This document shows, in pieces, positions 12,401 through 29,537 of a stretch of DNA of 64,000 bases (its first letter is position 1; the number at the start of each line of letters is the position of its first letter). The DNA is from Escherichia coli O157:H7. Its GTDB lineage: Bacteria > Pseudomonadota > Gammaproteobacteria > Enterobacterales > Enterobacteriaceae. The stretch lies in assembly GCF_013167455.1 (NCBI RefSeq), contig NZ_CP038328.1. One strand, 5' to 3'. The position numbers and the translations under genes were made by a program. The notes below the pieces were generated by a model. The model made no database searches, was not told where the DNA came from, and saw only the letters and a program-made list of their open reading frames with translations.

Positions 12401-13291
12401 TCAGGCTGCCAGATCATCGTTTCCGATGGAAGCATAATAAGCTTTTTCTGCTTCTGCCGGAGGAGTATGGCCCAGCCTTCCCAGCAATCGTCGATTGTTA
12501 TACCAGTCCACCCACGTTAGTGTGGCCAGTTCCACTTCTGCACGGTTTTTCCAGCTCTTACGGTGTATTACCTCCGCTTTGTAAAGACCATTGATGCTCT
12601 CAGCCATCGCGTTGTCATACGAGTCGCCTGTACTCCCTGTTGATGCCAGTAATCCGGCTTCTTTTAGTCGCTCCGTATAGGCCAGTGACACATACTGAGA
12701 GCCTTTATCGCTGTGATGGATGGTGCCAGACGGACGACGGGCCCACAACGCCTGCTCCAGCGCATCCAGCACGAATGTCGTTTCCATAGACGATGAGACC
12801 CGCCACCCCACGATGTATCCGGCAAACACATCAATGATAAACGCCACATAGACGAAGCCCTGCCATGTGCTGACGTAAGTAAAATCAGCCACCCACAGCT
12901 GGTCAGGTCGTTCTGCCACGAACTGACGGTTTACGCGGTCGCCTGCGGCAACGGCTTTCCGGCTGATGGTCGTACGGACCTTTTTACCCCGGAGAACACC
13001 GGCAAGTCCCATAACCGCCATGAGACGTGCCACTGTACATCTGGCCACCCTGATTCCTTCCCGTAACAACTGACGCCAGACTTTACGCACACCGTACACC
13101 TGATGATTTTCATCGTATACGCGCTGTATCTCTCTCTTCAGCCAGTCGTCGTGCTGCGCACGGGCACTGCGTTTATCCGGATGATGTCGCTGTTGCTGAC
13201 AATGGTAATACGTTGACGGGGCAATATGCAGTTCGCTGCATACCGGTCCGACCCCGTACTGCTCACGCAGCTTATCCAGCAGTGGCATCAT
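12401..13291 (-). CDS. IS3-family transposase OrfB (DDE integrase domain)
   Basis: 296 aa, [16 protein letters not shown]...; rve-type catalytic domain recognised. Confidence 0.85.
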
Positions 13292-13614
13292 TTTTTCCAG
13301 AGGCGGTCGAACTCCGCCTTCGCAAAATAAGCGGAAGCCTGGCGAAGGATATCGTTACTGCGGCGCAGTTCACGATTTTCACGTTCCAGCTCTTTCAGAC
13401 GCTGACGTTCAGCGCTGGTGAGCCCACCATCACCGCCCCCGGTATCCCGCTCATGCTGGCGAACCCAGACACGCAGAGTCTCCGGCGTACAGCCAATCTT
13501 TGGGGCAATGGAACAAATTGCCGCCCACTGTGAGTCATATTCATCCTGACTTTCCAGAACCATACGAATCGCCCGCTGACGGACTTCGGGGGAAAAACGA
13601 GTATTTTTAGTCAT
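13288..13614 (-). CDS. IS3-family transposase OrfA (HTH / leucine zipper)
   Basis: 108 aa, [22 protein letters not shown]...; overlaps orfB as expected for a -1 frameshift fusion. Confidence 0.85.
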
Positions 13615-13668
13615 CCTGTTTACCTCTTTCTCAGGGAGTTTAGTCTCCAGGATTTCCGGGGCGGTTCA

Positions 13669-14354
13669 ACACGATGGCTGAGGCGATTACCTACCGCCAG
13701 AAATTCAACGAACGTGAGGTGATGCTCTTATGGCCTGACTTCATCGCCTACAACCTGAAAAGTGGCAAAAACGAAACGTTCCCCGCGCCTGCTTATGCGT
13801 GCGGCCTTCGTGCGTACATTGACCATGAGCAGGGCTGGCACAAATCGCTGTCCAACGTTCCGGTTAAAAATGTGCTTGGGATGTCGAGGCATGTGTTCTG
13901 GTCGTTGCAGGCCGAAGACAGTGATGCCAACAGCCTCAACAACAAAGAAATCACGACCATTATTCGTCGCAACGGGTTCCGCTTCTGGGGCAACCGCACA
14001 CCGGAAACGAACGCCTACATCTTTGAGGTGTATACCCGAACCGCACAGGTGCTGGCTGATTCAATTGCGGAAGCGCAGTTTGAAACCATCGACAGTCCAC
14101 TGACACCTGCGAACGTGAAGGATGTTATCAGTGCCATCAGGGCAAAACTGGATTCACTGGTTACTGCCGGGAAACTGATTGGCGCGGAGTGCTGGTATGA
14201 CATCGAGGATAACAGCACCACGAATTTACGTCAGGGGCGTGTGCGTATTCGCTACAAATATACGCCCGTTCCTCCGCTGGAAGACATGGAGCTTTACCAG
14301 TCGTTTACTGATGAATTCTTTGGTCCCGCATTTGCGGTGCTGGGAGGTGCCTGA
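13669..14354 (+). pseudogene. P2 FI-like contractile tail sheath, C-terminal fragment (5' end cut off by IS629 copy 1)
   Basis: 226 codons continuing straight from the IS junction; resembles the sheath C-terminus; a full sheath is ~390 aa. Confidence 0.7.
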
Positions 14355-14866
14355 TGGCTGTACCAAAACATCTTCGCTTTTTTACGCTGTTTGTGGATGG
14401 TGAAAACGAAGTGGGTAAGGTGACGTCCGTCACCCTGCCTAAACTGACGCGCAAAACCGACAGCTACCGGGGTGGTGGCATGATGGGTGCGGTAAGTATT
14501 GACCTCGGCCTGGACGACTCCGCGCTTGATGCGAGCTTTGTCATGGGGGGCGCAGTTCGTGAGCTGTTCCTGAAGTATGGCGGCACGATTGACGGCACGC
14601 TACTGCGTTTTGCGGGGGAATACTACACCGATGATGAAAGCGACCTGTATGAAGTCGAAATGCGCGGACGTGTGACGGAAATTGATATGGGGGAAGCCAA
14701 ACAGGGCGAAGCCACATCACACACTTACGCCATTAAAAACACCTACTACAAGCTGAGTGTTAACGATCGCCCGTTGTGGGAGATTGACCTGCTGAACTTC
14801 ATTTACCGGAAGGACGGCAAGGACATTGTGCCCGATCGCATCCGTTCCGCGCTTGGGCTTGGCTGA
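14354..14866 (+). CDS. P2 FII-like tail tube protein
   Basis: 170 aa; TLPKLTRK...YRGGGMMGA...DLGLDD motif pattern of P2 FII. Confidence 0.8.
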   Translation: MAVPKHLRFFTLFVDGENEVGKVTSVTLPKLTRKTDSYRGGGMMGAVSIDLGLDDSALDASFVMGGAVRELFLKYGGTIDGTLLRFAGEYYTDDESDLYEVEMRGRVTEIDMGEAKQGEATSHTYAIKNTYYKLSVNDRPLWEIDLLNFIYRKDGKDIVPDRIRSALGLG

Positions 14867-14920
14867 TAAGTAATATGCAGGCGGCGCAGTGCGTCGCCTC
14901 TGACTGAAAGGAGTTTCCTG

Positions 14921-15450
14921 ATGAAAGAGACGAAAAACATCGATACCGAAAACACGGTAGTTACTGACACTGTGAAAGAAACCAGTGAGCGTGGTGTAAA
15001 ACTTACCCAACCAATTGAGCGAGGCGGCGAAAAAATCACGTATGTGGAGATCACCGGGGCTATTGAGCAGGCTGGATCTCTGCGAGATTTGTCGCTGTCT
15101 GATGTGCTGAATCTGAAAGCGGAATCCATGTTTACGCTGCTGTCACGCGTGACATCACCGCGACTGGATGAAGTGACGATCAAAAAAATGGCATCCCGTG
15201 ACTTTATTCAGTTATGTGTGGTTGCCGTAAATTTTTTGAGCGGTGCGGACTCTGGCGGGAAGAACGAACAGGCGACGGAAGCCTGATCACGGTTGTGTGC
15301 TTTGAGCACATAGAAGACTTTGTGGCAGATATTGCCGTTATTTTTAACTGGTCGCCCGCCGAAATCTTCATGATGACGCCCGGCGAAGTGGTTAGCTGGC
15401 GTGAGCGGGCGGCACTTCGCAGCGGGAATGCAGACAATGAAGACTCTTGA
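14921..15450 (+). CDS. tail assembly chaperone GpE and its -1 frameshift product E+E' (slippery T TTT TTG at 15232-15238)
   Basis: E frame ends at 15286; an overlapping -1 frame ORF (15214-15450) begins at the TTTTTTG heptamer, the conserved P2 E/E' recoding arrangement just upstream of the tape measure gene. Confidence 0.65.
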
Positions 15451-17527
15451 TATCCGGGTCGCTTTCAGCGCCGTTGACAGGCTGACCCGACCTGCCGAAA
15501 ACGCACGCCGCCTGATGGGGCAGTTTGGTGACTCCATCCAGCGAACGCAGGGGGCGATCAAAAATCTCGAGCGTCAGGCGCGATCATTTGAGCGCGCCCG
15601 CGACGCTGTCAGTAAAGCGGATGCTGGCATCGTGAAAGCACGACGCCAGCTTAACGCCCTTAATCAGTTACAACGCACGGGTACAGTGCTCAGCGAAAAA
15701 CAACAAAAGCTGATGCAGCAGTTAAGCACCCGGCTTGAACGCCTGAATGAATCGCGCACACGGGAAATTCAGAAAATGAGGGAACTTGGCGGAGAGCTGA
15801 AACGCCACGGCATTTCCCTGACAGGCAGCGATAACACCATTCAGCAGGCCATCAGACGCACCGAACAATACAACAACCAGCTTGAACGCGAACGGCAGGC
15901 GCTTGCGCGTGTAACGCAGGCGCGTGAGCGGTATTCGCACGCGCAGGAAACCGCGGGAAAACTGAAAACAGGTGGTGCGCTGGCAATTGGTGCGGCAGCG
16001 GCGGGCGGCTATGCTGCCGGGCGTTTTTTGCAGCCTGCGATCGGGTTCGGCAAAGAGATGTCCCGCGTTCAGGCACTGACGCGAATCGACAAAAACAGCC
16101 CGCAGTTTAAGGCGCTGCGTGAGCAGGCGTTAAAACTTGCTGAAACACAGTTTACTGCGAGTGATGCCGCCAGTGGGCAGAGCTTTCTGGCAATGGCTGG
16201 TTTTACTCCGCAGGCCATTCAGGCCGCATTGCCCGGTGTTCTTAATATGGCGCTGGCAGGTGGCGTCGAACTCGGCGAGACGGCTGATATAGGCTCCAAT
16301 ATCCTCACACAGTTCAACCTGACAGCCGATCAAATGGACCGGGTGGGCGATACGCTGACAGCAGCATTTACCCGGACCAATACTGATTTACGCGCGCTGG
16401 GCGAAACCATGAAGTATACCGGTCCGGTTGCCGCAAAACTTGGTATCAGTCTTGAAGAAGCGGCGGCCATGGCCGGGATGCTTGCCAATAATGGTCTTCG
16501 CGGAAGCGATGCTGGCACGGCCATGCGCGCAAGTCTGTCCCGCCTTGCATCACCGCCAAAAGCTGCGGCTGATGCACTGAAAGAGCTGGGGGTGTCAGTT
16601 GCTGACGCCAGAGGCAAAATGCGCCCGATGGAGGATGTGCTGCTTGATCTCTATAAGGCGACACAAAAATACGGACAGGTGGACCAGGTCTCCTTCTTCA
16701 AGGACATCGCCGGAGAAGAGGCGTTCGTTGGTTTGCAGACGCTTGTTGCGGCGGCTGGTTCAGGAGAGCTGCAAAAACTGACCAGAGAATTGCAGGGGGC
16801 AAGGGGAGAGGCCGATCGCGTCGCAAAAGTAATGGCTGATAATCTTGATGGGGACCTGAAAAATCTCGACAGCGCATGGGAAGGTCTTCGTATTCGCATC
16901 AGTGATCTGGTTGACGGTCCGCTGCGTTCTGTCACGCAGTGGCTCACGCGGGTGCTTGAAAAAATCACCTCGCTGGCGCAGGCCCATCCGGTACTGACGC
17001 GCCAGCTACTGATAGCAGGCGGTGCGTTGCTGGCAATGACTGCAACGATTGGCTCGTTGTCGCTGGTTATTGGGGTGCTTTACGGGAAGCTGGCCACCCT
17101 GCGTCTTGGTTTTGACATTCTTACCCGGTCAATGAATGTCGTCAGGGTGTTACCTGCGCTATGGGGAATGGTGACGGGTTCCGTTTCTTTACTGGGAGGC
17201 GTTATCGGGGCGTTGTTCAGTCCGGTTGGTCTTATCGTGGCTGCGCTTGCCGGAGCTGCCGTTCTTATCTGGAAATACTGGGATCCTATCAGGGCTTTCT
17301 TTGCCGGGGTGTTCAGCGGGATTATGGAAAGGCTGACCCCGTTGCGCGACACCTTTGAACGGTTTGGCCCTGTTTTTGACGTAATCGGAAGCGGTTCAGC
17401 CAGGTGTTTAACTGGTTTAAATCGCTGCTGTCACCGATGGAGTCCAGCAAGGAAACGCTGGATAAATGTACCAGTGCTGGCGAGGTATTCGGTAACGTTC
17501 TTGGTGGTGCGTTACAGCTTGTTCTGA
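15401..17527 (+). CDS. tail tape measure protein (GpT-like), N-terminal reading frame
   Basis: 708 codons, coiled-coil rich with hydrophobic segments; position after E/E'. Frame changes near 17380-17527. Confidence 0.75.
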   Translation: MSGRHFAAGMQTMKTLDIRVAFSAVDRLTRPAENARRLMGQFGDSIQRTQGAIKNLERQARSFERARDAVSKADAGIVKARRQLNALNQLQRTGTVLSEKQQKLMQQLSTRLERLNESRTREIQKMRELGGELKRHGISLTGSDNTIQQAIRRTEQYNNQLERERQALARVTQARERYSHAQETAGKLKTGGALAIGAAAAGGYAAGRFLQPAIGFGKEMSRVQALTRIDKNSPQFKALREQALKLAETQFTASDAASGQSFLAMAGFTPQAIQAALPGVLNMALAGGVELGETADIGSNILTQFNLTADQMDRVGDTLTAAFTRTNTDLRALGETMKYTGPVAAKLGISLEEAAAMAGMLANNGLRGSDAGTAMRASLSRLASPPKAAADALKELGVSVADARGKMRPMEDVLLDLYKATQKYGQVDQVSFFKDIAGEEAFVGLQTLVAAAGSGELQKLTRELQGARGEADRVAKVMADNLDGDLKNLDSAWEGLRIRISDLVDGPLRSVTQWLTRVLEKITSLAQAHPVLTRQLLIAGGALLAMTATIGSLSLVIGVLYGKLATLRLGFDILTRSMNVVRVLPALWGMVTGSVSLLGGVIGALFSPVGLIVAALAGAAVLIWKYWDPIRAFFAGVFSGIMERLTPLRDTFERFGPVFDVIGSGSARCLTGLNRCCHRWSPARKRWINVPVLARYSVTFLVVRYSLF

Positions 17528-18240
17528 CGCCTGCAAAAATGTTGCTGGATACGCTGGCGTGGATACTTGAAAAACTCGGTGTGCTTCCGGATGAAGCGGA
17601 AAGGGCGCGCAAGAAAATCGAAGACGCACAACGTGCGGCCATTCTTCAGGACAAGGTTGCTCTGTTTCAGGGAGACATTGCGAAAATCAATCCGCCGAAG
17701 TCTGCGGGAAATAGCAATGGCACCGGAGATGATAAACCCAAAGACAACAAACCTCTCACAGACAGCAATACCGGCACGCTACGCAGACTCAGCAAAATTG
17801 CTGATAACACAGGTAAGCTGGTTGATGAGACAAAAAAACGCATTGGCCCCGGCGATATTGTCTTTAAGAACCTGCCCCGCGCACTTGCTGTTCGTGGGGA
17901 GTGGCAGGAGCGGAAGATTGCGCAGGTCAGTAAGCCTGCCCCCGCAATTAATATCACACCCGTGGTCCCGGCTCCGCTGCCTCCGGCGCTGGTCCCTGTT
18001 GTTGCGGCCAGCTCCCGCCCGGTGGTGGAGGCCATACGATCGCCAGTGGCATCAGTTCCTGCAACTTCCCGTAACCGGGAGCCTGTTGCCTCCGGATTTG
18101 GCGGTGAAATTCATGTTCATCTGCATAACGTTGTTACGCAGAATCCCCGCGAACTGGCGAAACTGGTCGGCGAAATGGTCAGGGCAGAAATGGAACGGCG
18201 CGCCCGTGCCAGGCGTGGCAGTTTTTACGATAAAGATTGA
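17404..18240 (+). CDS. tail tape measure protein, C-terminal segment in a different frame (apparent frameshift)
   Basis: 278 codons in the +2 frame relative to the upstream part; this frame opens after a stop at 17377-17379. Confidence 0.6.
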   Translation: MFNWFKSLLSPMESSKETLDKCTSAGEVFGNVLGGALQLVLTPAKMLLDTLAWILEKLGVLPDEAERARKKIEDAQRAAILQDKVALFQGDIAKINPPKSAGNSNGTGDDKPKDNKPLTDSNTGTLRRLSKIADNTGKLVDETKKRIGPGDIVFKNLPRALAVRGEWQERKIAQVSKPAPAINITPVVPAPLPPALVPVVAASSRPVVEAIRSPVASVPATSRNREPVASGFGGEIHVHLHNVVTQNPRELAKLVGEMVRAEMERRARARRGSFYDKD

Positions 18241-18246
18241 GGAGTC

Positions 18247-18741
18247 ATGGCCATGATGATGATCTACGGCATGTTTGTTTTTGAGCTGCGCACGTTGCCG
18301 CATCAGCAGTTACAGCAAAACAAAAGCTGGCGACATGTGAAAAATGAACGCGTTAACCGTTCAGCAAGCTGGCAGTATATCGGTGCAGGTGATGATCGCA
18401 TCGTTCTTTCTGGTGTTCTTTATCCTGAGATTACTGGTGGCGAAGTGTCGCTGTCGTTGTTGACCACGCAGGCATATACAGGACGTCCTTGGCCTTTGAT
18501 TGATGGCGTCGGGCAGATTTACGGCATGTATGTCCTGACCGGAACGAATACGACCCGCTCCGAGTTTGATCGCTACGGTAAGGCGAAAAAGATAGAATTT
18601 TCACTGACTCTTGAACGCTGTGATGAGGATTTGCGGGAGCGCCTGCAATCCTCATCGTTCAGCGATATGCTGTCCGGCTTCAAAGATAAGGTGACATCAT
18701 CCCTTAATAGCGCGGCCAGCTCAGTTAAGGGGCTGCTCTGA
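18247..18741 (+). CDS. P2 GpU-like tail protein
   Basis: 164 aa; MMMIYGMFVFELRTLPHQQLQ... resembles P2 U. Confidence 0.8.
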   Translation: MAMMMIYGMFVFELRTLPHQQLQQNKSWRHVKNERVNRSASWQYIGAGDDRIVLSGVLYPEITGGEVSLSLLTTQAYTGRPWPLIDGVGQIYGMYVLTGTNTTRSEFDRYGKAKKIEFSLTLERCDEDLRERLQSSSFSDMLSGFKDKVTSSLNSAASSVKGLL

Positions 18742-18864
18742 TTTAACGTATGTCGCCAATTTCCTGATGAAGGTGACTGGCGACTTGCTGTTGTATGTCC
18801 TTCTCAGAAAATTGTTTTTGAATAACAAATAACAGGATTTTATAATCTCTTAACCTTATAACAT

Positions 18865-19470
18865 GTGTGGTCTGAAATAATAATTAAGGAGATTATCGTG
18901 CTATCTTACTTAATGGCAATTCACTTTGTTTTATTTGGAAACTCTACTAATTTAAAAAACTTCTGGAAACATGAAGTAATTCGGCGGAAACGTATGGATA
19001 TCTGGAGGCTTTTAAGAGAGAAAAAGCAGCGTAACCGGAATTTCCTTTTCTGGTGGCGGTTGGCTAACGAAATGTATATTAATGGTAATAAATTACATAA
19101 GAAAGCAGCCAAAAAGTTAAACAGTAAAATAATTAACAAGTTTGGTTGTGAAATAGGATTGGGCGCAAATATTGGAAAAGGGTTGACAATTCCCCATCAT
19201 GCTGGAATTGTTGTTCATTTTGCTGTTGATGCGGGTGAAAATCTGGTATTACGACAGAATACTACCATTGGACAGATAGATGGTGATATGCCTAGTTCAA
19301 GAGTAAAAATTGGTAGTAACGTTGATATCGGAGCTAATTGTTGCATCATTGGATTATCACGTAAAATTGGGGATAATGTAAAAATAGGTGCAATGTCTTT
19401 TATAAATAAAGATATACCATCAAACTGCACATATATAACTAAAAAGAGTGGTGTTGTATTGTATAAATAG
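18865..19470 (+). CDS. left-handed beta-helix (hexapeptide-repeat) O-acetyltransferase, CysE/WcaB/NeuO-like (prophage cargo)
   Basis: Hexapeptide repeats (IGANIGKG...IGSNVDIGANCCIIG...IGDNVKIGAMS); strongly AT-rich; the true start may be an internal Met. Confidence 0.65.
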   Translation: MWSEIIIKEIIVLSYLMAIHFVLFGNSTNLKNFWKHEVIRRKRMDIWRLLREKKQRNRNFLFWWRLANEMYINGNKLHKKAAKKLNSKIINKFGCEIGLGANIGKGLTIPHHAGIVVHFAVDAGENLVLRQNTTIGQIDGDMPSSRVKIGSNVDIGANCCIIGLSRKIGDNVKIGAMSFINKDIPSNCTYITKKSGVVLYK

Positions 19471-19513
19471 AGTACATAAAGCCATCGATATTTCTGTCGA
19501 TGGCTTTTTCTTT

Positions 19514-19930
19514 TTATTGTGGGGCGACTGGCCACTCAACATCCGCTGCTACTGTTGTATCAACACGATTCAACAATACCCGATATGTCTTCCATGCAGC
19601 CAGTAACGATGCCTCTTCCTCCGTCGCAATATCCAAATCTACGGCATCCTGAAGTGGCGCAATATGCTCACTGGCTACCTGCATCAGGCTGTTTTTTGTT
19701 TCTTCTGCCTCCCGTACCCGAAACAGTTTTTCTGCTTCTGCATCTTTCGCCCAGGATGTGCCGTTCCACTTCTGACACTCTCCATCCGGCGACAACCAGG
19801 TAACATTTTCCGGTAACGGACCGAGTTCAGAAATAAATAACGCGTCGCCGGAAGCCACGTCATAAACCGTTTTACCCCGATGATCTTCAACGAGATGCCA
19901 CGATGCCTCATTACTGTTGAAAACAGCCAC
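19514..19930 (-). CDS. tail fibre assembly protein (Tfa family), 5'-truncated; the reading frame continues upstream to 20046 without a start
   Basis: C-terminal Tfa region recognised; the upstream frame 19931-20046 translates [38 protein letters not shown] and runs into IS629 copy 2. Confidence 0.75.
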
Positions 19931-20046
19931 GAAGCCAGCCGGAATATCTGGCGGTGCAATATCGGTACTGTTTGCTGGCAGACCTGTATGAGGCGGAATG
20001 TATGCGTCACCTTCACCAATAAATTCATTAGTTCCGGCCAGCAGAT

Positions 20047-21104
20047 TGAACCGCCCCGGGAATCCTGGAGACTAAACTCCCTGAGAAAGAGGTAAACAGG
20101 ATGACTAAAAATACACGTTTTTCCCCCGAGGTCCGTCAACGGGCAGTCCGTATGGTTCTGGAAAGTCAGGGCGAATATGACTCACAATGGGCGGCAATTT
20201 GTTCCATTGCCCCAAAGATTGGCTGTACACCAGAGACTCTGCGTGTGTGGGTTCGTCAGCATGAGCGGGATACCGGGGGCGGTGATGGTGGACTCACCAC
20301 CGCTGAACGTCAGCGTCTGAAAGAGCTGGAACGTGAAAATCGTGAACTGCGCCGCAGTAACGATATCCTTCGCCAGGCTTCCGCTTATTTTGCGAAGGCG
20401 GAGTTCGACCGCCTCTGGAAAAAATAATGCCGCTGCTGGATAAGCTGCGTGAGCAGTACGGGGTCGGACCGGTATGCAGTGAACTGCATATTGCCCCGTC
20501 AACGGATTACCACTGTCAGCAACAGCGACATCATCCGGATAAACGCAGTGCCCGTGCGCAGCGCGATGACTGGCTGAAGAGAGAGATACAGCGCGTATAC
20601 GATGAAAATCATCAGGTGTACGGTGTGCGTAAAGTCTGGCGCCAGTTGTTACGCGAAGGTATCAGGGTGGCCAGATGTACAGTGGCGCGCCTCATGGCGG
20701 TTATGGGACTTGCCGGTGTTCTCCGGGGTAAAAAGGTCCGTACTACCGTCAGCCGGAAAGCCGTTTCCGCAGGCGACCGCGTAAACCGTCAGTTCGTGGC
20801 AGAACGTCCTGACCAGCTGTGGGTGGCTGATTTTACTTACGTCAGCACATGGCAGGGCTTCGTCTATGTGGCGTTCATCATTGATGTGTTTTCCGGATGT
20901 ATCGTGGGGTGGCGAGTCTCATCGTCTATGGAAACGACATTCGTGCTGGATGCACTGGAGCAGGCGTTGTGGGCCCGTCGGCCGTCCGGCACAGTCCATC
21001 ACAGTGATAAAGGTTCTCAGTATGTATCACTGGCCTATACGGAGCGACTAAAAGAAGCAAAACTGCTGGCATCAACAGGGAGTACAGGTGACTCGTATGA
21101 CAAT
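20047..21104 (+). mobile_element. IS3-family IS629-like element, copy 2, 3'-truncated (~1058 of ~1310 bp), inverted relative to copy 1
   Basis: Left IR TGAACCGCCCCGGGAATCCTGGAG at 20047; similarity to copy 1 stops after ...gactcgtatgacaa (~21104). Confidence 0.85.
20101..20427 (+). CDS. IS3-family transposase OrfA
   Basis: 108 aa, nearly identical to copy 1 OrfA (a few substitutions). Confidence 0.85.
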
Positions 21105-21135: not shown

Positions 21136-21450
21136 TTATTCTGGGAATAAGGTCTGAATATTCTTTTTTATTTTATAAAAATTGCATTCAACTCCGCTAG
21201 GCTGATTAGCCTGGTATGTTTCCTTGATGCTAACGGTATTGAAGGGGAGGTTGTCCTCTGGCCATTCGGCCATCCAGTAGGCAAATGCTGGGTTGCGCTT
21301 TATGAGTGCTAGCCCAGCCAGAAAGGCCGCGCGTTGCGCGCGGCTGCGTTCGGAGGCTGGCAGGCTATCGAGGTAATTGCACGCCTCCTGTTCACTCTTG
21401 ACGGCGGCGGGCTTCAGATAGAAACTTATCCGTCTGGTTGGTGTCGTCAT
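21136..21450 (-). CDS. ParR/StbB-like centromere-binding adaptor of a type II partition system
   Basis: 104 aa; RRISFYLKP...LDSLPASERSRAQRAAFLAGLALIKRNP resembles plasmid R1 ParR (recalled from memory). Confidence 0.65.
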   Translation of the reverse strand: MTTPTRRISFYLKPAAVKSEQEACNYLDSLPASERSRAQRAAFLAGLALIKRNPAFAYWMAEWPEDNLPFNTVSIKETYQANQPSGVECNFYKIKKNIQTLFPE

Positions 21451-21454
21451 TGGT

Positions 21455-22414
21455 TTACTCCTTGTTCATTGCGTACAACCCATTAACCAGAGCAAACTGT
21501 GGCACCCCGTCCGCGATGAAAGTCGCATTAACTCCGCAGGCTTCGCGGATAGCGGTTGCCACAATCTCCGCCCCGCCACCGACAACCATCACCCGCCCGT
21601 AACCCGAAAAAACCGCCAGCGCGCGGATCACGCGTTGTTTCAGTGTTTCTTCCTTTTCACGAATAACCGCCATCAGGCTGGCGTAATGCGCGTCATTGTG
21701 GATGTGCTGGCGCAGCCAGGCTTCATCATGGCGATGTTCGATAATGGTATTGGCGATGTGGTGACTGGTGCGCATACCGTTAGTGGCCATCACCGACAGT
21801 ACGGCATCGGCCATCAGAGAAACGCCTACGTGTGGATCGCAAAACACCTGGCTGATACCTGCCAGTTGCCCCTGAACCTTTGCCACATCCAGCGTGGTTC
21901 CGCCCAAATCCACAATCAGCAGGGATTCAAACGGACTCATGTCAGCCAGTGCCTTAAAGCCAGCAGGAATGGATTCAGGCATAACCCGTACGTTACGGAT
22001 AGTGAATGCTTCGCCGTTCTGGTACTCCACCGGGCGCATGACGTTCGCTTTTTTGCGGTTGATGTTGGCCATGTCCGGCTGTGCGTTTGTATCGAAATAC
22101 TCGCTCAGTGGCAGGGTGACAACCACATCCACTTCCTGTGGTGTGATGCCTGATTTGACCAGCGCGTGATGAATGGCAATTACATTCACATCGCTGTACT
22201 GGTATTGCGTGTCGGTCGTCTGGACAAAGCGATCGCTGACCGGATCAAAACCATAGCGCACGCCATCAAGCATGTAGTTCGCGGGCTGCGTGCCACCGAA
22301 TGGCGCAGACCATTCCGACTTGAAGCTGTTCGGGCTGATGGCGTTGCGGCGTTCGCCGTTCTCAGTCCATGCCAGCTTGATGTTGGTGGAGCCGTCGTCG
22401 ATACAAATTTTCAT
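21455..22414 (-). CDS. ParM/StbA-like actin-family partition ATPase
   Basis: 319 aa; actin-fold motifs IDDGSTNIK (phosphate 1), LIVDLGGTTLD (phosphate 2), VMVVGGGA (adenosine). Confidence 0.75.
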   Translation of the reverse strand: MKICIDDGSTNIKLAWTENGERRNAISPNSFKSEWSAPFGGTQPANYMLDGVRYGFDPVSDRFVQTTDTQYQYSDVNVIAIHHALVKSGITPQEVDVVVTLPLSEYFDTNAQPDMANINRKKANVMRPVEYQNGEAFTIRNVRVMPESIPAGFKALADMSPFESLLIVDLGGTTLDVAKVQGQLAGISQVFCDPHVGVSLMADAVLSVMATNGMRTSHHIANTIIEHRHDEAWLRQHIHNDAHYASLMAVIREKEETLKQRVIRALAVFSGYGRVMVVGGGAEIVATAIREACGVNATFIADGVPQFALVNGLYAMNKE

Positions 22415-25757: not shown

Positions 25758-25988
25758 TTAATGGAGTTTGTTTTGCTGCTGGATGAGCTGTTGAAACTCG
25801 TGCAGATCATCCGCCAGATAGCTGAAAACAGAGGCGGAATAAATGTTTGATAGTGCGTGGCTGCGCTCATGCAGCATATTGATGTGCATGATTTGCGCGA
25901 CGCGTGATGCGCGGGAAAGTCTGCGGTTGATTTCAGTCTGGATGTGACGACGCTCCGCGATAGCGCGGTGCTGTTTGCGGTCTGCCAT
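25758..25988 (-). CDS. hypothetical prophage early protein
   Basis: 76-aa ORF in the early operon. Confidence 0.4.
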   Translation of the reverse strand: MADRKQHRAIAERRHIQTEINRRLSRASRVAQIMHINMLHERSHALSNIYSASVFSYLADDLHEFQQLIQQQNKLH

Positions 25989-26310
25989 GGTGTGGCCTCT
26001 TTGCTCGGTGATAGAAATAACTCACCATCCAGAGTTGAGAATCTCGGGGTGGCGAGACGTACAGGGTTCTCAACACCGGAGAGCAAAGAATCCGGCCCGA
26101 CCGAAGTCGGCCCCGTACGCCCCGCCATAATTCTGACGCGAAAAAGACGTGGCAATACAGTACGCACAAAAAAACCGCTAGCGCGGTTATGCGCTTTGCT
26201 CTGTATCGGGTTGAGAATCCCGGCACCCGTTTTATGAGGTGCAGCGGAAATGTAACCTGACCGATTGCGGCATGGCAAGCGGTTTTTTTGTGTGTGCATG
26301 TTCTGGTTTC

Positions 26311-26610
26311 TTACTGGTTCAGAAAAAAATCAAAAACGTTATCGATGCGTTGCAGCAGCTCTTGCTGCATTGCTTCCGGCGTTTCCGGTTCGCCAGGTGC
26401 CCCCAGCGTTGCGCAGAAATCAGCGATTTCATGATGGAGCGTGAGGCGAATGGCAGGAGCCGTGGTTCTGGCGTGCTCCAGCTGATCCAGCAGTGCCAGC
26501 ACAGCAGACGGCGAGAGCATTGCGCGAAATGCCAGTAATTTTTGAGGCGTTGCCATTCGTTGCAGGGCAAATGCCAGTTCGCGTAGCTTCTGGTGGTTGA
26601 TGGTGCTCAT
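26311..26610 (-). CDS. hypothetical prophage early protein
   Basis: 99 aa; start overlaps the upstream stop (translational coupling). Confidence 0.5.
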   Translation of the reverse strand: MSTINHQKLRELAFALQRMATPQKLLAFRAMLSPSAVLALLDQLEHARTTAPAIRLTLHHEIADFCATLGAPGEPETPEAMQQELLQRIDNVFDFFLNQ

Positions 26611-26873
26611 GCTCTGGCTTCCTTCAGTAGCTGGTTAAACATGTGAGTAAGTGGATTGCTACACCCGAACGGCATCGGGTTTACGTGGTAAGAAGCCTGG
26701 CCTCCTGTTTTGCGAGCGCGACCACCTGTGCTGCGGTTTGTTCTGATGACTAAGCCGCCGCGCCAAAGTCGGCGTAACTCAGCATTAATGGCTGTGGTTG
26801 GGGTATTCAGTGCTGCGGCGATCTCTCCGCCGCTACACCCCGGATGAGTAGCGATGTAGTCCAGAATGGTCAT
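26607..26873 (-). CDS. hypothetical small protein, possible winged-helix DNA-binding
   Basis: 88 aa; coupled to its neighbours by 4-nt overlaps. Confidence 0.45.
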   Translation of the reverse strand: MTILDYIATHPGCSGGEIAAALNTPTTAINAELRRLWRGGLVIRTNRSTGGRARKTGGQASYHVNPMPFGCSNPLTHMFNQLLKEARA

Positions 26874-27096: not shown

Positions 27097-27513
27097 CTAT
27101 GCGTTAAATACGGCACGTTGCGCGTCATCAATGAATACAGCTTGAGAGCGTTCTATCAGGCGGAGATTTGTCAGAAGCTCTGACTCTTTTGTGTGGTAAG
27201 GCGTTATCAGGTATTTGCCGTGCAGTTCGGCAATAATGGTGTATTGCAGCATCATTGCTGAACCAAGAATATAAATGCAGCGTCCAATGCTGGACGGATT
27301 CATGGCTGCAACTGTTGACTGTGTTTTAAGAGTGTCGATTTCTTTGCTCTGTTCCTCAATAACTTTGGCTGCTTCAGGGGTGGCTATTGCGATGGTCAGT
27401 GCGTAAAGCGCTGCCATATGTTGATTATCTTTCTGGGCTGCCCTGGACAGCTTGTCTTGCTCTGCTGACACTATTTTTAATGTATTGATAATATTTTTTT
27501 CTTTTGCGTTCAT
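27097..27513 (-). CDS. hypothetical prophage early protein
   Basis: 138-aa ORF with a consistent coding strand. Confidence 0.5.
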   Translation of the reverse strand: MNAKEKNIINTLKIVSAEQDKLSRAAQKDNQHMAALYALTIAIATPEAAKVIEEQSKEIDTLKTQSTVAAMNPSSIGRCIYILGSAMMLQYTIIAELHGKYLITPYHTKESELLTNLRLIERSQAVFIDDAQRAVFNA

Positions 27514-27605
27514 TTTATATCTCCGTTATTTACGTGTGCGAATACCTCCGCGAATGCGGATAGTTTTCAGGTTTTCGGGTTTAATCTGGTGTTCTGTTTA
27601 AGCTG

Positions 27606-27719
27606 TTATTTGTCAGTGAAAAAGCGTTCAATCTTTTTTACTGAATGAATAATTCGCATAATCCCAATGGCGCAGGCCACCGAAATAATCAGAACAAGCC
27701 ATGAGATAAATATACTCAT
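27606..27719 (-). CDS. 37-aa single-pass membrane peptide (MSIFISWLVLIISVACAIGIMRIIHSVKKIERFFTDK)
   Basis: Translated by hand; not in the ORF track (below its size cutoff). Its ATG overlaps the upstream stop as ATGA at 27716-27719. Confidence 0.45.
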   Translation of the reverse strand: MSIFISWLVLIISVACAIGIMRIIHSVKKIERFFTDK

Positions 27720-27958
27720 GCGATATTCCCCAGCTTATATGGTTCAATGTGTTCCCCGCATTCTGCGGCACAGATCAGCTCGGAAAGTTCGTTAAGTGCA
27801 TCCAGATCATCAGCGTAAAAAGCAACGTCATACAAACTCCGGATTGCCCTGGTCAATGAGTCACGGGCTGCACGTTCAGCATGAGCGCCTGATGCACTTA
27901 AGCGAAAATAAAATCGTTCAGGTGCTTTGTTAATGAGAGTTTTATATTCTTTGCCCAT
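27716..27958 (-). CDS. hypothetical 80-aa protein coupled to the downstream membrane peptide
   Basis: ORF in the early operon; acidic C-terminus. Confidence 0.45.
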   Translation of the reverse strand: MGKEYKTLINKAPERFYFRLSASGAHAERAARDSLTRAIRSLYDVAFYADDLDALNELSELICAAECGEHIEPYKLGNIA

Positions 27959-28850: not shown

Positions 28851-29057
28851 TCAGGAAGATTTGTTTTGTTCTTTCTGGGTTAGCTCTAGGCCGCGAAGGG
28901 AGATCATGCGCGCCATGTTAGAGGATGAGCGTTGTTCTTTAGCTGCCATTTCATCAATGACGGCTCGCTCCTCGAGGGACAGCCGAAGTGCCAGTCTTGG
29001 ACCTGTGGCGGTGTTACGCGGAATGCGTGATCTGGTATCGTGAAGAACTTGTTTCAT
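28851..29057 (-). CDS. ribbon-helix-helix (Arc/CopG-like) small regulator, first gene of the leftward early operon
   Basis: 68 aa; LSLEERAVIDEMAAKEQRSSSNMARMI is RHH-like; divergent from the repressor gene. Confidence 0.5.
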   Translation of the reverse strand: MKQVLHDTRSRIPRNTATGPRLALRLSLEERAVIDEMAAKEQRSSSNMARMISLRGLELTQKEQNKSS

Positions 29058-29132
29058 AGTGGTATATTGTGATCATCTAATAGCTCGTGAAATCATTTTG
29101 GTATCAAAAAAGATACCTGTCAAGGTTTTTGT
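29058..29132. promoter_or_regulatory. immunity-switch intergenic region with operator-like palindrome GGTATCaaaaaaGATACC (29100-29117)
   Basis: Perfect 6-bp inverted repeat with 6-bp spacer between the divergent repressor and early operon; a GGTAT half-site recurs at ~29060. Confidence 0.5.
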
Positions 29133-29537
29133 ATGAAAAATGATATTGGTCGGCGGTTGCGTGAGGAAAGGGAAAGATTGGGACTTAGTCAAGTTGCCAT
29201 GAGCGACATTGGTGGAGTCAAAAAGCTAACTCAGCTTAGATATGAGAAAGGAGATAGCTTTCCTGATGCTGCGTATTTGGCAGCGCTGTCTCGTTTTGGC
29301 CTTGATGTTCAGTATGTTGTGTTGGGAATTCACTCACCTGAAACTTATAACGATGATGAGCAGGAATTGATTACTCGCTTTCGAGCAGCTTCGTTAGATG
29401 TGAAAAACGCGGTGATTGGGGCTTTAAAAGGTGCGATCAGTGAAAAGGAAACTCAGCCATCAGGACGTGAGTTAAATATTTCTGGTGGTAATAACCGTAT
29501 CGCTGGTCGTGACTATAACGAAACTAAGGGTAGGTGA
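29133..29537 (+). CDS. prophage repressor, HTH XRE family (C/CI-like)
   Basis: 134 aa; N-terminal HTH (LREERERLGLSQVAMSDIGGVKKLTQLRYEKG); divergent from the Cox-like gene; upstream of int. Confidence 0.75.
   Translation: MKNDIGRRLREERERLGLSQVAMSDIGGVKKLTQLRYEKGDSFPDAAYLAALSRFGLDVQYVVLGIHSPETYNDDEQELITRFRAASLDVKNAVIGALKGAISEKETQPSGRELNISGGNNRIAGRDYNETKGR

Follow-up and report, generated by a model that had tools for sequence, protein, structure and literature searches.

A DUF4754 gene and an overlapping gene for a small, putative membrane peptide, conserved as a pair in the early operon of a P88-like prophage of Escherichia coli O157:H7

The gene pair and its existing annotation

We analysed a stretch of 64,000 nucleotides (nt) of Escherichia coli O157:H7 DNA (contig NZ_CP038328.1 of RefSeq assembly GCF_013167455.1; hereafter the window, with positions counted from its first letter) and concentrated on two short genes in the early operon of a prophage, which encode an 80-amino-acid (aa) protein of the DUF4754 family and a 37-aa peptide. 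The two genes overlap by four nt and are followed by a conserved hairpin, and the features that concern the pair directly are as follows.

27716..27958, minus strand: gene of the 80-aa DUF4754 protein, with ATG start and TGA stop; RefSeq WP_000514287.1, PF15946, PHROG 2549
27606..27719, minus strand: gene of the 37-aa peptide, putatively single-pass membrane, MSIFISWLVLIISVACAIGIMRIIHSVKKIERFFTDK; present in the open reading frame (ORF) list, RefSeq WP_000021655.1
27716..27719, minus strand: ATGA overlap of the DUF4754 stop and the peptide start (plus-strand letters TCAT)
27726..27731, minus strand: Shine-Dalgarno-like GGGGAA, 6 nt 5' of the peptide ATG and within the 3' end of the DUF4754 gene
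27547..27560, minus strand: 5-bp GC hairpin (UCCGC-AUUC-GCGGA, then GG) within the peptide gene's 3' untranslated region, bordering the variable downstream genes

The smaller gene had been proposed earlier from a hand translation of the window, with an ATG that overlaps the stop codon of the 80-aa ORF. This original prediction is reproduced on both counts, as the ORF and its exact quoted translation are found at 27719..27606 on the minus strand, and the ATGA at 27716-27719 agrees with the sequence and is kept in all 97 related loci compared. The comparison set comprised 84 loci with 89-100% DNA identity, i.e. the window, 3 annotated records and 80 IMG/VR contigs, and came to 97 loci in all once the divergent lineages L084-L098, including Salmonella, were added. 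The statement that the 37-aa ORF lies below the ORF-track cutoff is true of the first-stage track, but the ORF is annotated in RefSeq, in GenBank phage records and in UniRef, and the gene is therefore already known to the databases rather than newly discovered. In RefSeq, the Prokaryotic Genome Annotation Pipeline (PGAP) names WP_000514287.1 a 'DUF4754 family protein' and WP_000021655.1 a 37-aa 'hypothetical protein'. Elsewhere the peptide is labelled 'membrane protein' (P88 gp07), 'putative membrane protein' (another phage) and 'Prophage membrane protein' (UniRef), and at least 1000 public contigs have its exact 37-aa sequence. The peptide is one of the small membrane proteins of temperate-phage early regions, a familiar class.

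Conservation and selection in the 37-codon frame

A 37-codon ORF is by itself not above chance, because 86 ORFs of at least 25 aa are listed in 6 kilobases (kb). Across the 84 loci, the frame is intact in 83, of which 75 encode a 37-aa product and 8 a 45-aa product with a frameshifted C-terminus, one locus being broken; the same ATG and the same overlap with the DUF4754 gene are found in 84 of 84. The ratio of nonsynonymous to synonymous diversity (pN/pS) in the peptide gene, calculated from 33 intact alleles, is 0.25 when read in the annotated frame, whereas the other two sense frames give 1.69 and 0.94, and the variable sites are distributed 9/6/18 over the three codon positions (chi-square p=0.029). 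Between the deep lineages, synonymous diversity in the peptide gene approaches saturation (pS 0.53-0.75), with pN at 0.21-0.26 and dN/dS at 0.11-0.33. Drift or stops in the frame of related prophages would have counted against the original prediction, and the frame is intact in all but one of the 84 loci. Judged by these patterns, the peptide ORF is a genuine gene under moderate purifying selection, and both ORFs are almost certainly real protein-coding genes.

Searches of 1.84 billion representative proteins with phmmer, together with a profile search, matched only relatives of this peptide, which are 37, 41 or 45 aa in length, unnamed throughout and derived from Escherichia, Salmonella and Citrobacter prophages. 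The profile search, headed by a 41-aa homologue, covers more than 150 peptide clusters at 90% identity, all of them 'hypothetical protein' from Escherichia. In six further DUF4754 lineages, whose DUF4754 proteins are 25-51% identical to that of O157, a homologous peptide gene lies directly 3' with the same 4-nt overlap and encodes a peptide of 41 aa (56-69% identical) or of 37 aa. In the Salmonella enterica prophages at L094 (2740-2892) and L095 (686-847), we observed an uncalled gene for a 50-53-aa single-pass peptide, again with an ATGA over the DUF4754 stop. The Salmonella peptide (MNCGIPVSVCFSWTVFALSIIAAIAIVRLWRAISKPDK...) retains the SW motif, the hydrophobic helix and the basic segment.

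The 45-aa forms in the 84-locus set arise from a 1-nt indel in a T-run, five codons before the end of the gene. More generally, sense-strand A6 and T5 runs at 27615-27640 are recurrent indel sites at the 3' end of the peptide gene, and the variant 45-aa C-termini read KRLNAFSL... when they derive from the A-run and ERFSLVNN... when they derive from the T-run, several of these being abundant clusters. Phage 503458 carries several homopolymer indels in both genes, which may reflect decay or sequencing error.

The 37-aa peptide

The hydrophobic window at residues 3-21 has a summed Hessa dG of -2.9 kcal/mol and a mean Kyte-Doolittle hydropathy of 2.7, in agreement with the single transmembrane (TM) helix of the original prediction. 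Outside this window, two residues lie on the N-terminal side and a 16-residue tail on the other, which contains five K/R and two D/E and has a high hydrophobic moment. According to the positive-inside rule, the basic flank of a TM helix stays in the cytoplasm. The basic tail and this rule together indicate that the peptide is probably a single-pass inner-membrane protein of N-out/C-in topology, with the N-terminus in the periplasm and the basic, amphipathic tail in the cytoplasm. An AlphaFold run in which the two proteins were fused into one chain models the whole peptide as a single helix. Among the 37- and 41-aa forms, S6, W7, L10, I11, A17, G19, I23, I24, K28, I30, E31 and F34 are invariant, and the MRII motif, also invariant, lies within or at the edge of the membrane helix, as do W7 and G19. 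The peptide has a charge of +2.6, as against -3.3 to -6.4 for DUF4754.

The DUF4754 partner

The 80-aa protein matches Pfam family PF15946 (DUF4754; E=4.9e-53) and phrog_2549, which has no assigned function (E=6e-37), in both cases over residues 1-80 of 80. It is acidic, with an isoelectric point of 5.3 in O157 and of 4.5-5.3 across its forms. The AlphaFold2 model has a mean predicted local distance difference test (pLDDT) score of 81 and helices at residues 4-23, 25-48 and 52-66, and the prediction for DUF4754 is a bundle of three helices whose C-terminal tail is extended; this tail has a conserved (I/V)xPY motif, and Pro73 is invariant. A function based on the fold was considered and set aside, the Foldseek matches in PDB and BFVD being generic helical bundles only (E>0.6), and profile matches in PDB were designed helical repeats, which we read as an effect of composition.

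DUF4754 proteins are split into discrete types that are 25-51% identical to one another, with conserved ends and a variable centre (P0116 is an example). Within a type they are near-invariant, the protein being identical in 79 of 84 loci despite a pS of 0.11, and the pN/pS of the O157 type is 0.008 in a sample selected by protein identity. Such a pattern of types hints at a likeness to specificity determinants.

The O157 allele encodes Pro13 (codon at 27920-27922) in the middle of predicted helix 1, a position that is Leu in 24 of 25 family representatives and in 82 of 84 loci, and this L13P change may be a sign of decay in a defective prophage. Database entries for DUF4754 proteins of 103-128 aa were considered as natural fusions and rejected as frameshift artefacts, since they mostly enter the third, non-conserved frame; nearly all are singletons from raw assemblies.

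Coupling and co-inheritance of the two genes

The duplex of the peptide gene's Shine-Dalgarno (SD)-like element with the anti-SD sequence is calculated at -5.5 kcal/mol, within a series of -4.8 to -6.6 for other genes of the operon, and reaches -6.3 to -10.3 kcal/mol in most of the divergent lineages. Across the loci, the element lies 6-8 nt 5' of the start, within the DUF4754 gene. Because the overlap is found in every locus and is accompanied by an SD-like element, which is the classical layout for termination-reinitiation, translation of the peptide is likely to be coupled to that of DUF4754 at the ATGA. Programmed frameshifting at the junction was considered as well and rejected, as AAT ATC GCA TGA contains no slippery heptamer.

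Co-inheritance is, from comparison of the loci, stronger evidence for a unit than the overlap. The pair occurs in fixed order at every locus examined and is kept while its flanks change, DUF4761 being missing in L097 and the downstream genes differing among loci; in plasmid-borne copies, the peptide gene again adjoins DUF4754.

The hairpin downstream of the pair

The hairpin is found at every one of the 97 related loci, even in lineages where DUF4754 identity falls to 25%, and occurs as a single copy in the window. In its general form, AUCCGC-NNNN-GCGGAGG, 98.8% of cells are paired, one pair covaries from C-G to U-A and the loop varies freely. It lies about 50-55 nt after the peptide stop, and the start of the next gene is about 90 nt from that stop. 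The 3' arm continues into a perfect GGAGG. A sense-strand U-tail is missing in most copies (L097 has GGGUUUUGUU), and a T-rich tail is found on the opposite strand. Sequence conservation ends about 15 nt past the hairpin, where the downstream gene content changes. Possible roles for the hairpin are those of a weak terminator (cf. tR1 of phage 186), of a site for stabilisation or processing of the mRNA 3' end, or of a recombination sequence at a module boundary. As a target of the C4 antisense RNA encoded further downstream, the hairpin at 27547-27560 was rejected, as the C4 loop GUUGAGAAC instead matches GAUUCUCAAC repeats flanking C4.

The host element and its early operon

Many E. coli O157:H7 chromosomes carry the region with 100% identity, and P88-like phages (Xuanwuvirus, Peduoviridae, the P2 family) match it at 85-93% identity; of the 5426 complete E. 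coli genomes, 1361 (about 25%) have DNA of at least 80% identity. Related prophage copies of the peptide or the pair are found in Salmonella and Citrobacter as well. The host element is a defective P88-like prophage of E. coli O157:H7, inserted between yecA and a tRNA cluster. Its defects include interruption by insertion sequence (IS) elements, a frameshifted tape-measure gene, a truncated gene D and the absence of head genes, while the regulatory and early region is intact. The features of the element that bear on the expression of the pair, and other features found in the window, are listed below.

30586-31587, plus strand: integrase
29133-29537, plus strand: CI-like repressor
29123..29095, minus strand: Pe-like early promoter TTGACA-17-CAAAAT (10/12 matches), divergent from the CI-like repressor gene
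26168-26242, minus strand: isrK-like RNA (63 bits)
26045-26132, minus strand: C4 antisense RNA (78.5 bits)
25758-25988, minus strand: gene of the 76-aa 'derepression protein'
13217-13333 and 20382-20498: ALIL pseudoknots (IS3-family/IS30 copies, late region)
19551-19749: IS009 RNA

Both genes are probably transcribed from the Pe-like promoter. From this promoter, the minus-strand order is the Arc-like ORF, the Cox-like gene, DUF4761, a 92-aa gene, the 80-aa DUF4754 gene and the 37-aa peptide gene, followed by several small genes, the isrK/C4 RNA module, the 'derepression protein' and the 940-aa replication endonuclease A. This order, which runs from a promoter divergent from the CI-like repressor gene through to replication gene A, bears out the early-operon placement made in the original prediction. 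The sole sense-strand promoter-like site near the pair is at 27933..27905 (9/12 matches), and promoter-like sites are no commoner than in shuffled sequence (4 found, 4.0 expected), so that no internal promoter stands above chance.

The first ORF after the Pe-like promoter is the Arc-like ORF (68 aa, 28851-29057, minus strand; PHROG 3431, E=4e-27), which has neither a RefSeq annotation nor a Shine-Dalgarno sequence. RefSeq instead calls the 45-aa WP_001673482.1 on the opposite strand of the same DNA, which is probably a mis-annotation. Further downstream, GAUUCUCAAC repeats on either flank of C4 are complementary to the C4 loop GUUGAGAAC, and the isrK/C4/derepression set is an RNA immunity module in the style of P1, P7 and P4 within a P2-family prophage. 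Directly after replication gene A, at 21136-22414 on the minus strand, are two RefSeq-annotated genes, one for a plasmid segregation protein of the ParM type and one for a partitioning/stability protein. Such cargo is unusual in integrated P2-like prophages, and it may point to an episomal phase in the ancestor. The late region, at about 13200-20500, is broken by IS3-family and IS30 copies.

A proposed function for the pair

We tentatively propose, with rather less than even confidence, that the pair provides an early, dispensable, host-directed accessory function at the inner membrane. The peptide would be inserted in the inner membrane as one helix (residues 3-21) with its basic tail on the cytoplasmic face, and would be made at a fixed ratio to the acidic, cytoplasmic DUF4754 protein by reinitiation at the ATGA, aided by a moderate SD. 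The operon would be repressed in the lysogen and the pair would be made only upon infection or induction, as suggested by its position in a repressor-controlled lytic operon with no internal promoter above chance. From this context, the pair may then modify the host at the inner membrane, in the niche that Fil and Dhr of phage 186 occupy at the equivalent position, with DUF4754 either bound to the tail of the peptide or working alongside it. Direct contact between the two proteins is conceivable, but we regard it as somewhat doubtful.

Several observations weigh against this proposal. The literature on DUF4754, Xuanwuvirus prophages and early small membrane proteins of P2-like phages contained nothing on these genes; scans of the PHROG, NCBIfam and PADLOC libraries gave no family for the peptide; and Foldseek found no significant analogue of the DUF4754 model (best E 2.3 in PDB and 0.6 in BFVD). 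Two O157 translatome (Ribo-seq) papers on uninduced cultures do not have the peptide sequence in their supplements, an absence that is expected if the operon is repressed but that gives translation no positive support. Because the 45-aa frameshift variants are common, the C-terminal end of the peptide (its last 5-9 residues) appears dispensable. Other 4-nt overlaps occur in the same operon, at 26870-26873 and 26607-26610, and as such overlaps are frequent there, coupling is by itself not evidence of a functional partnership. The types of peptide and DUF4754 have also been reshuffled: L085 combines an O157-like DUF4754 (81% identical) with a peptide of the L084 type, and L096 a 44%-identical DUF4754 with an 86%-identical peptide, which argues against a tightly co-evolving interface. 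Finally, the fused-chain AlphaFold run (GS linker, paired alignment, predicted aligned error not output) gave a predicted template modelling (pTM) score of 0.47, a disordered linker and no sign of docking.

In a more elaborate form of the proposal, which is speculative and which we hold to be improbable, the pair would be a two-component early effector in which the peptide holds a hypervariable, acidic DUF4754 at the inner membrane, the DUF4754 types being the outcome of an arms race and the hairpin providing control or stabilisation at the RNA level. If this were true, the target of the effector would be the host or a rival phage, for example in anti-defence or in competition between phages. 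Being both common and conserved, the pair offers a test case for the small early membrane peptides of temperate phages, and since the gene is annotated, the value lies in functional follow-up rather than in gene discovery.

Alternative explanations

As the main alternative, the pair could be explained differently if the peptide were a membrane anchor with no activity of its own, its tail tethering DUF4754 as the true effector, perhaps an inhibitor of or decoy for a host or competitor factor. The strict co-occurrence and coupled production of the two genes would suit such an arrangement, as would their opposite charges (+2.6 for the peptide, -3.3 to -6.4 for DUF4754), the divergence of the DUF4754 types (25-51% identity) each of which is nevertheless strongly constrained, and the far greater uniformity of the peptide, as for a generic anchor. 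The fused-chain model, however, has no confident docking, and the invariant residues along the whole peptide (W7, G19, MRII) suggest more than passive anchoring, and we consider this explanation unlikely.

In a second alternative, the peptide would be a toxin that depolarises the membrane and DUF4754 the neutraliser that restrains it until a trigger arrives, as in abortive infection or addiction. The peptide does have the size and build of small membrane toxins (N-terminal TM helix, charged tail), it forms a tightly coupled pair in which the partner gene comes first, and the cassette has stayed intact in a prophage without head genes. Against this, the pair is part of a repressed lytic operon, shows no promoter of its own beyond what chance would give and has no PADLOC match. 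The peptide ORF is sometimes frameshifted with the partner intact while the reverse is not enriched, and both genes carry indels in phage 503458; among complete E. coli genomes, about 25% have the cassette, and there is no sign of orphan antitoxins. Taken with these points, a toxin and its neutraliser make an improbable account of the pair.

Exclusion of other phages is a frequent role of small membrane proteins in temperate phages, HK97 gp15, T4 Imm and P22 SieA being examples, and the original prediction had named exclusion among the possible roles of the peptide. Retention of the cassette in a defective prophage would be in keeping with a superinfection-exclusion or lysogenic-conversion membrane protein expressed in the lysogen. 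The gene is situated, however, in the middle of the repressor-controlled lytic operon, where it lies 3' of the Cox-like gene and is read in the direction away from the repressor gene; the sole nearby sense promoter-like site (27933..27905, 9/12) is at chance level, and the peptide was not seen in the O157 translatome supplements for uninduced cultures. On this indirect evidence, a role in exclusion is very unlikely.

It is more doubtful still that the small ORF has no protein function and is kept because its translation aids downstream expression or mRNA stability. The conserved hairpin and then the next gene do follow the peptide gene, and its C-terminal residues tolerate frameshifts, but the amino acids are kept across lineages near synonymous saturation (dN/dS 0.11-0.33), 13 invariant residues are shared among the 37- and 41-aa forms, the TM character is kept even in the very divergent Salmonella form, and the gaps of 55 nt to the hairpin and about 90 nt to the next start argue against downstream coupling.

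A locus resembling type I toxin-antitoxin systems, with the peptide mRNA under an antisense small RNA, as the original prediction had also entertained, is scarcely credible on the computational evidence: the peptide is small and hydrophobic with the typical length of a type I toxin, and the plus strand has, immediately 3' of the gene, a short hairpin that resembles a terminator and ends in a T-rich tail (27547-27575), as well as a weak promoter-like site at 27465-27494, but the gene overlaps its upstream neighbour in 97 of 97 loci and is not a separate transcription unit, that hairpin would halt an antisense transcript short of the peptide gene, the promoter-like site sits in a gene that is not conserved between phages, no plus-strand promoter-like site lies between 27575 and 27720, no Rfam match beyond chance was found at E up to 10, and synonymous diversity, which an overlapping functional RNA would lower, is not lowered (pS 0.146 in the peptide gene against 0.110 in its partner).

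Comparison with known systems

Several known systems can be set beside the proposed host-directed function at the inner membrane. The closest relatives of the pair are gp06 and gp07 of P88 and their Xuanwuvirus orthologues, with 98.8% identity for DUF4754 and 94.6% for the peptide and with the same order, overlap and flanks. The O157 copy differs from them in the L13P change in DUF4754, in a peptide that ends in TDK rather than TGE or TDE, and in that its prophage is defective.

In its architecture, the peptide resembles two groups of small membrane proteins, and the likeness to either is architectural only. Type I toxins such as Fst/Ldr, Hok and TisB have an N-terminal TM helix and a charged tail, and the peptide is like them in length (30-50 aa), in its single hydrophobic helix and in the charge of its C-terminal tail; unlike theirs, its gene is embedded in a polycistronic operon and has no long regulatory 5' leader, and there is no sequence similarity. 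AcrZ, MgrB, MgtR and KdpF are bitopic peptides of 30-50 aa that bind larger membrane proteins via their TM helix. The peptide is likewise predicted to be bitopic and is of similar length, and its S6, W7 and G19 would fit helix-helix recognition, whereas it is phage-encoded, has a soluble partner and shows no homology to these proteins. A holin/antiholin pair is not suggested by the setting, the neighbours of the peptide gene being early regulatory and replication genes and the late region lying elsewhere and being partly deleted. None of lambda Kil, Qin DicB and P1 Icd surfaced in the search of 1.84 billion proteins, in which no individual comparison with them was made. Kil-like toxicity of the peptide and a role of DUF4754 as its regulator or chaperone, both raised in the original prediction, gained no support from the BLASTP comparison with Fil of phage 186, from the fold searches or from the fused-chain model.

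Among P2-family temperate phages, phage 186 has at the corresponding place the fil and dhr genes, two short overlapping genes of the early lytic operon, non-essential in 186, placed between the switch genes and the first hairpin or terminator, upstream of replication gene A. Fil blocks cell division and Dhr depresses host replication, and both are expressed in the lytic state only. The two systems differ in the overlap, which is 14 nt in 186 and 4 nt here, and in their products, as Fil (75 aa) and Dhr (66 aa) are not predicted to be single-pass membrane peptides, unlike the 37-aa peptide. By eye, the peptide tail (IMRIIHSVKK) resembles the C-terminal residues of 186 Fil (IIRIVHFVIK), but this likeness was set aside, as BLASTP of the peptide against Fil gave no alignment at E up to 100, and tblastn with both proteins of the pair found P88-like phages only. 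By position and by expression class only, 186 fil/dhr would be the closest functional analogy to the DUF4754 and peptide genes of the O157:H7 prophage.

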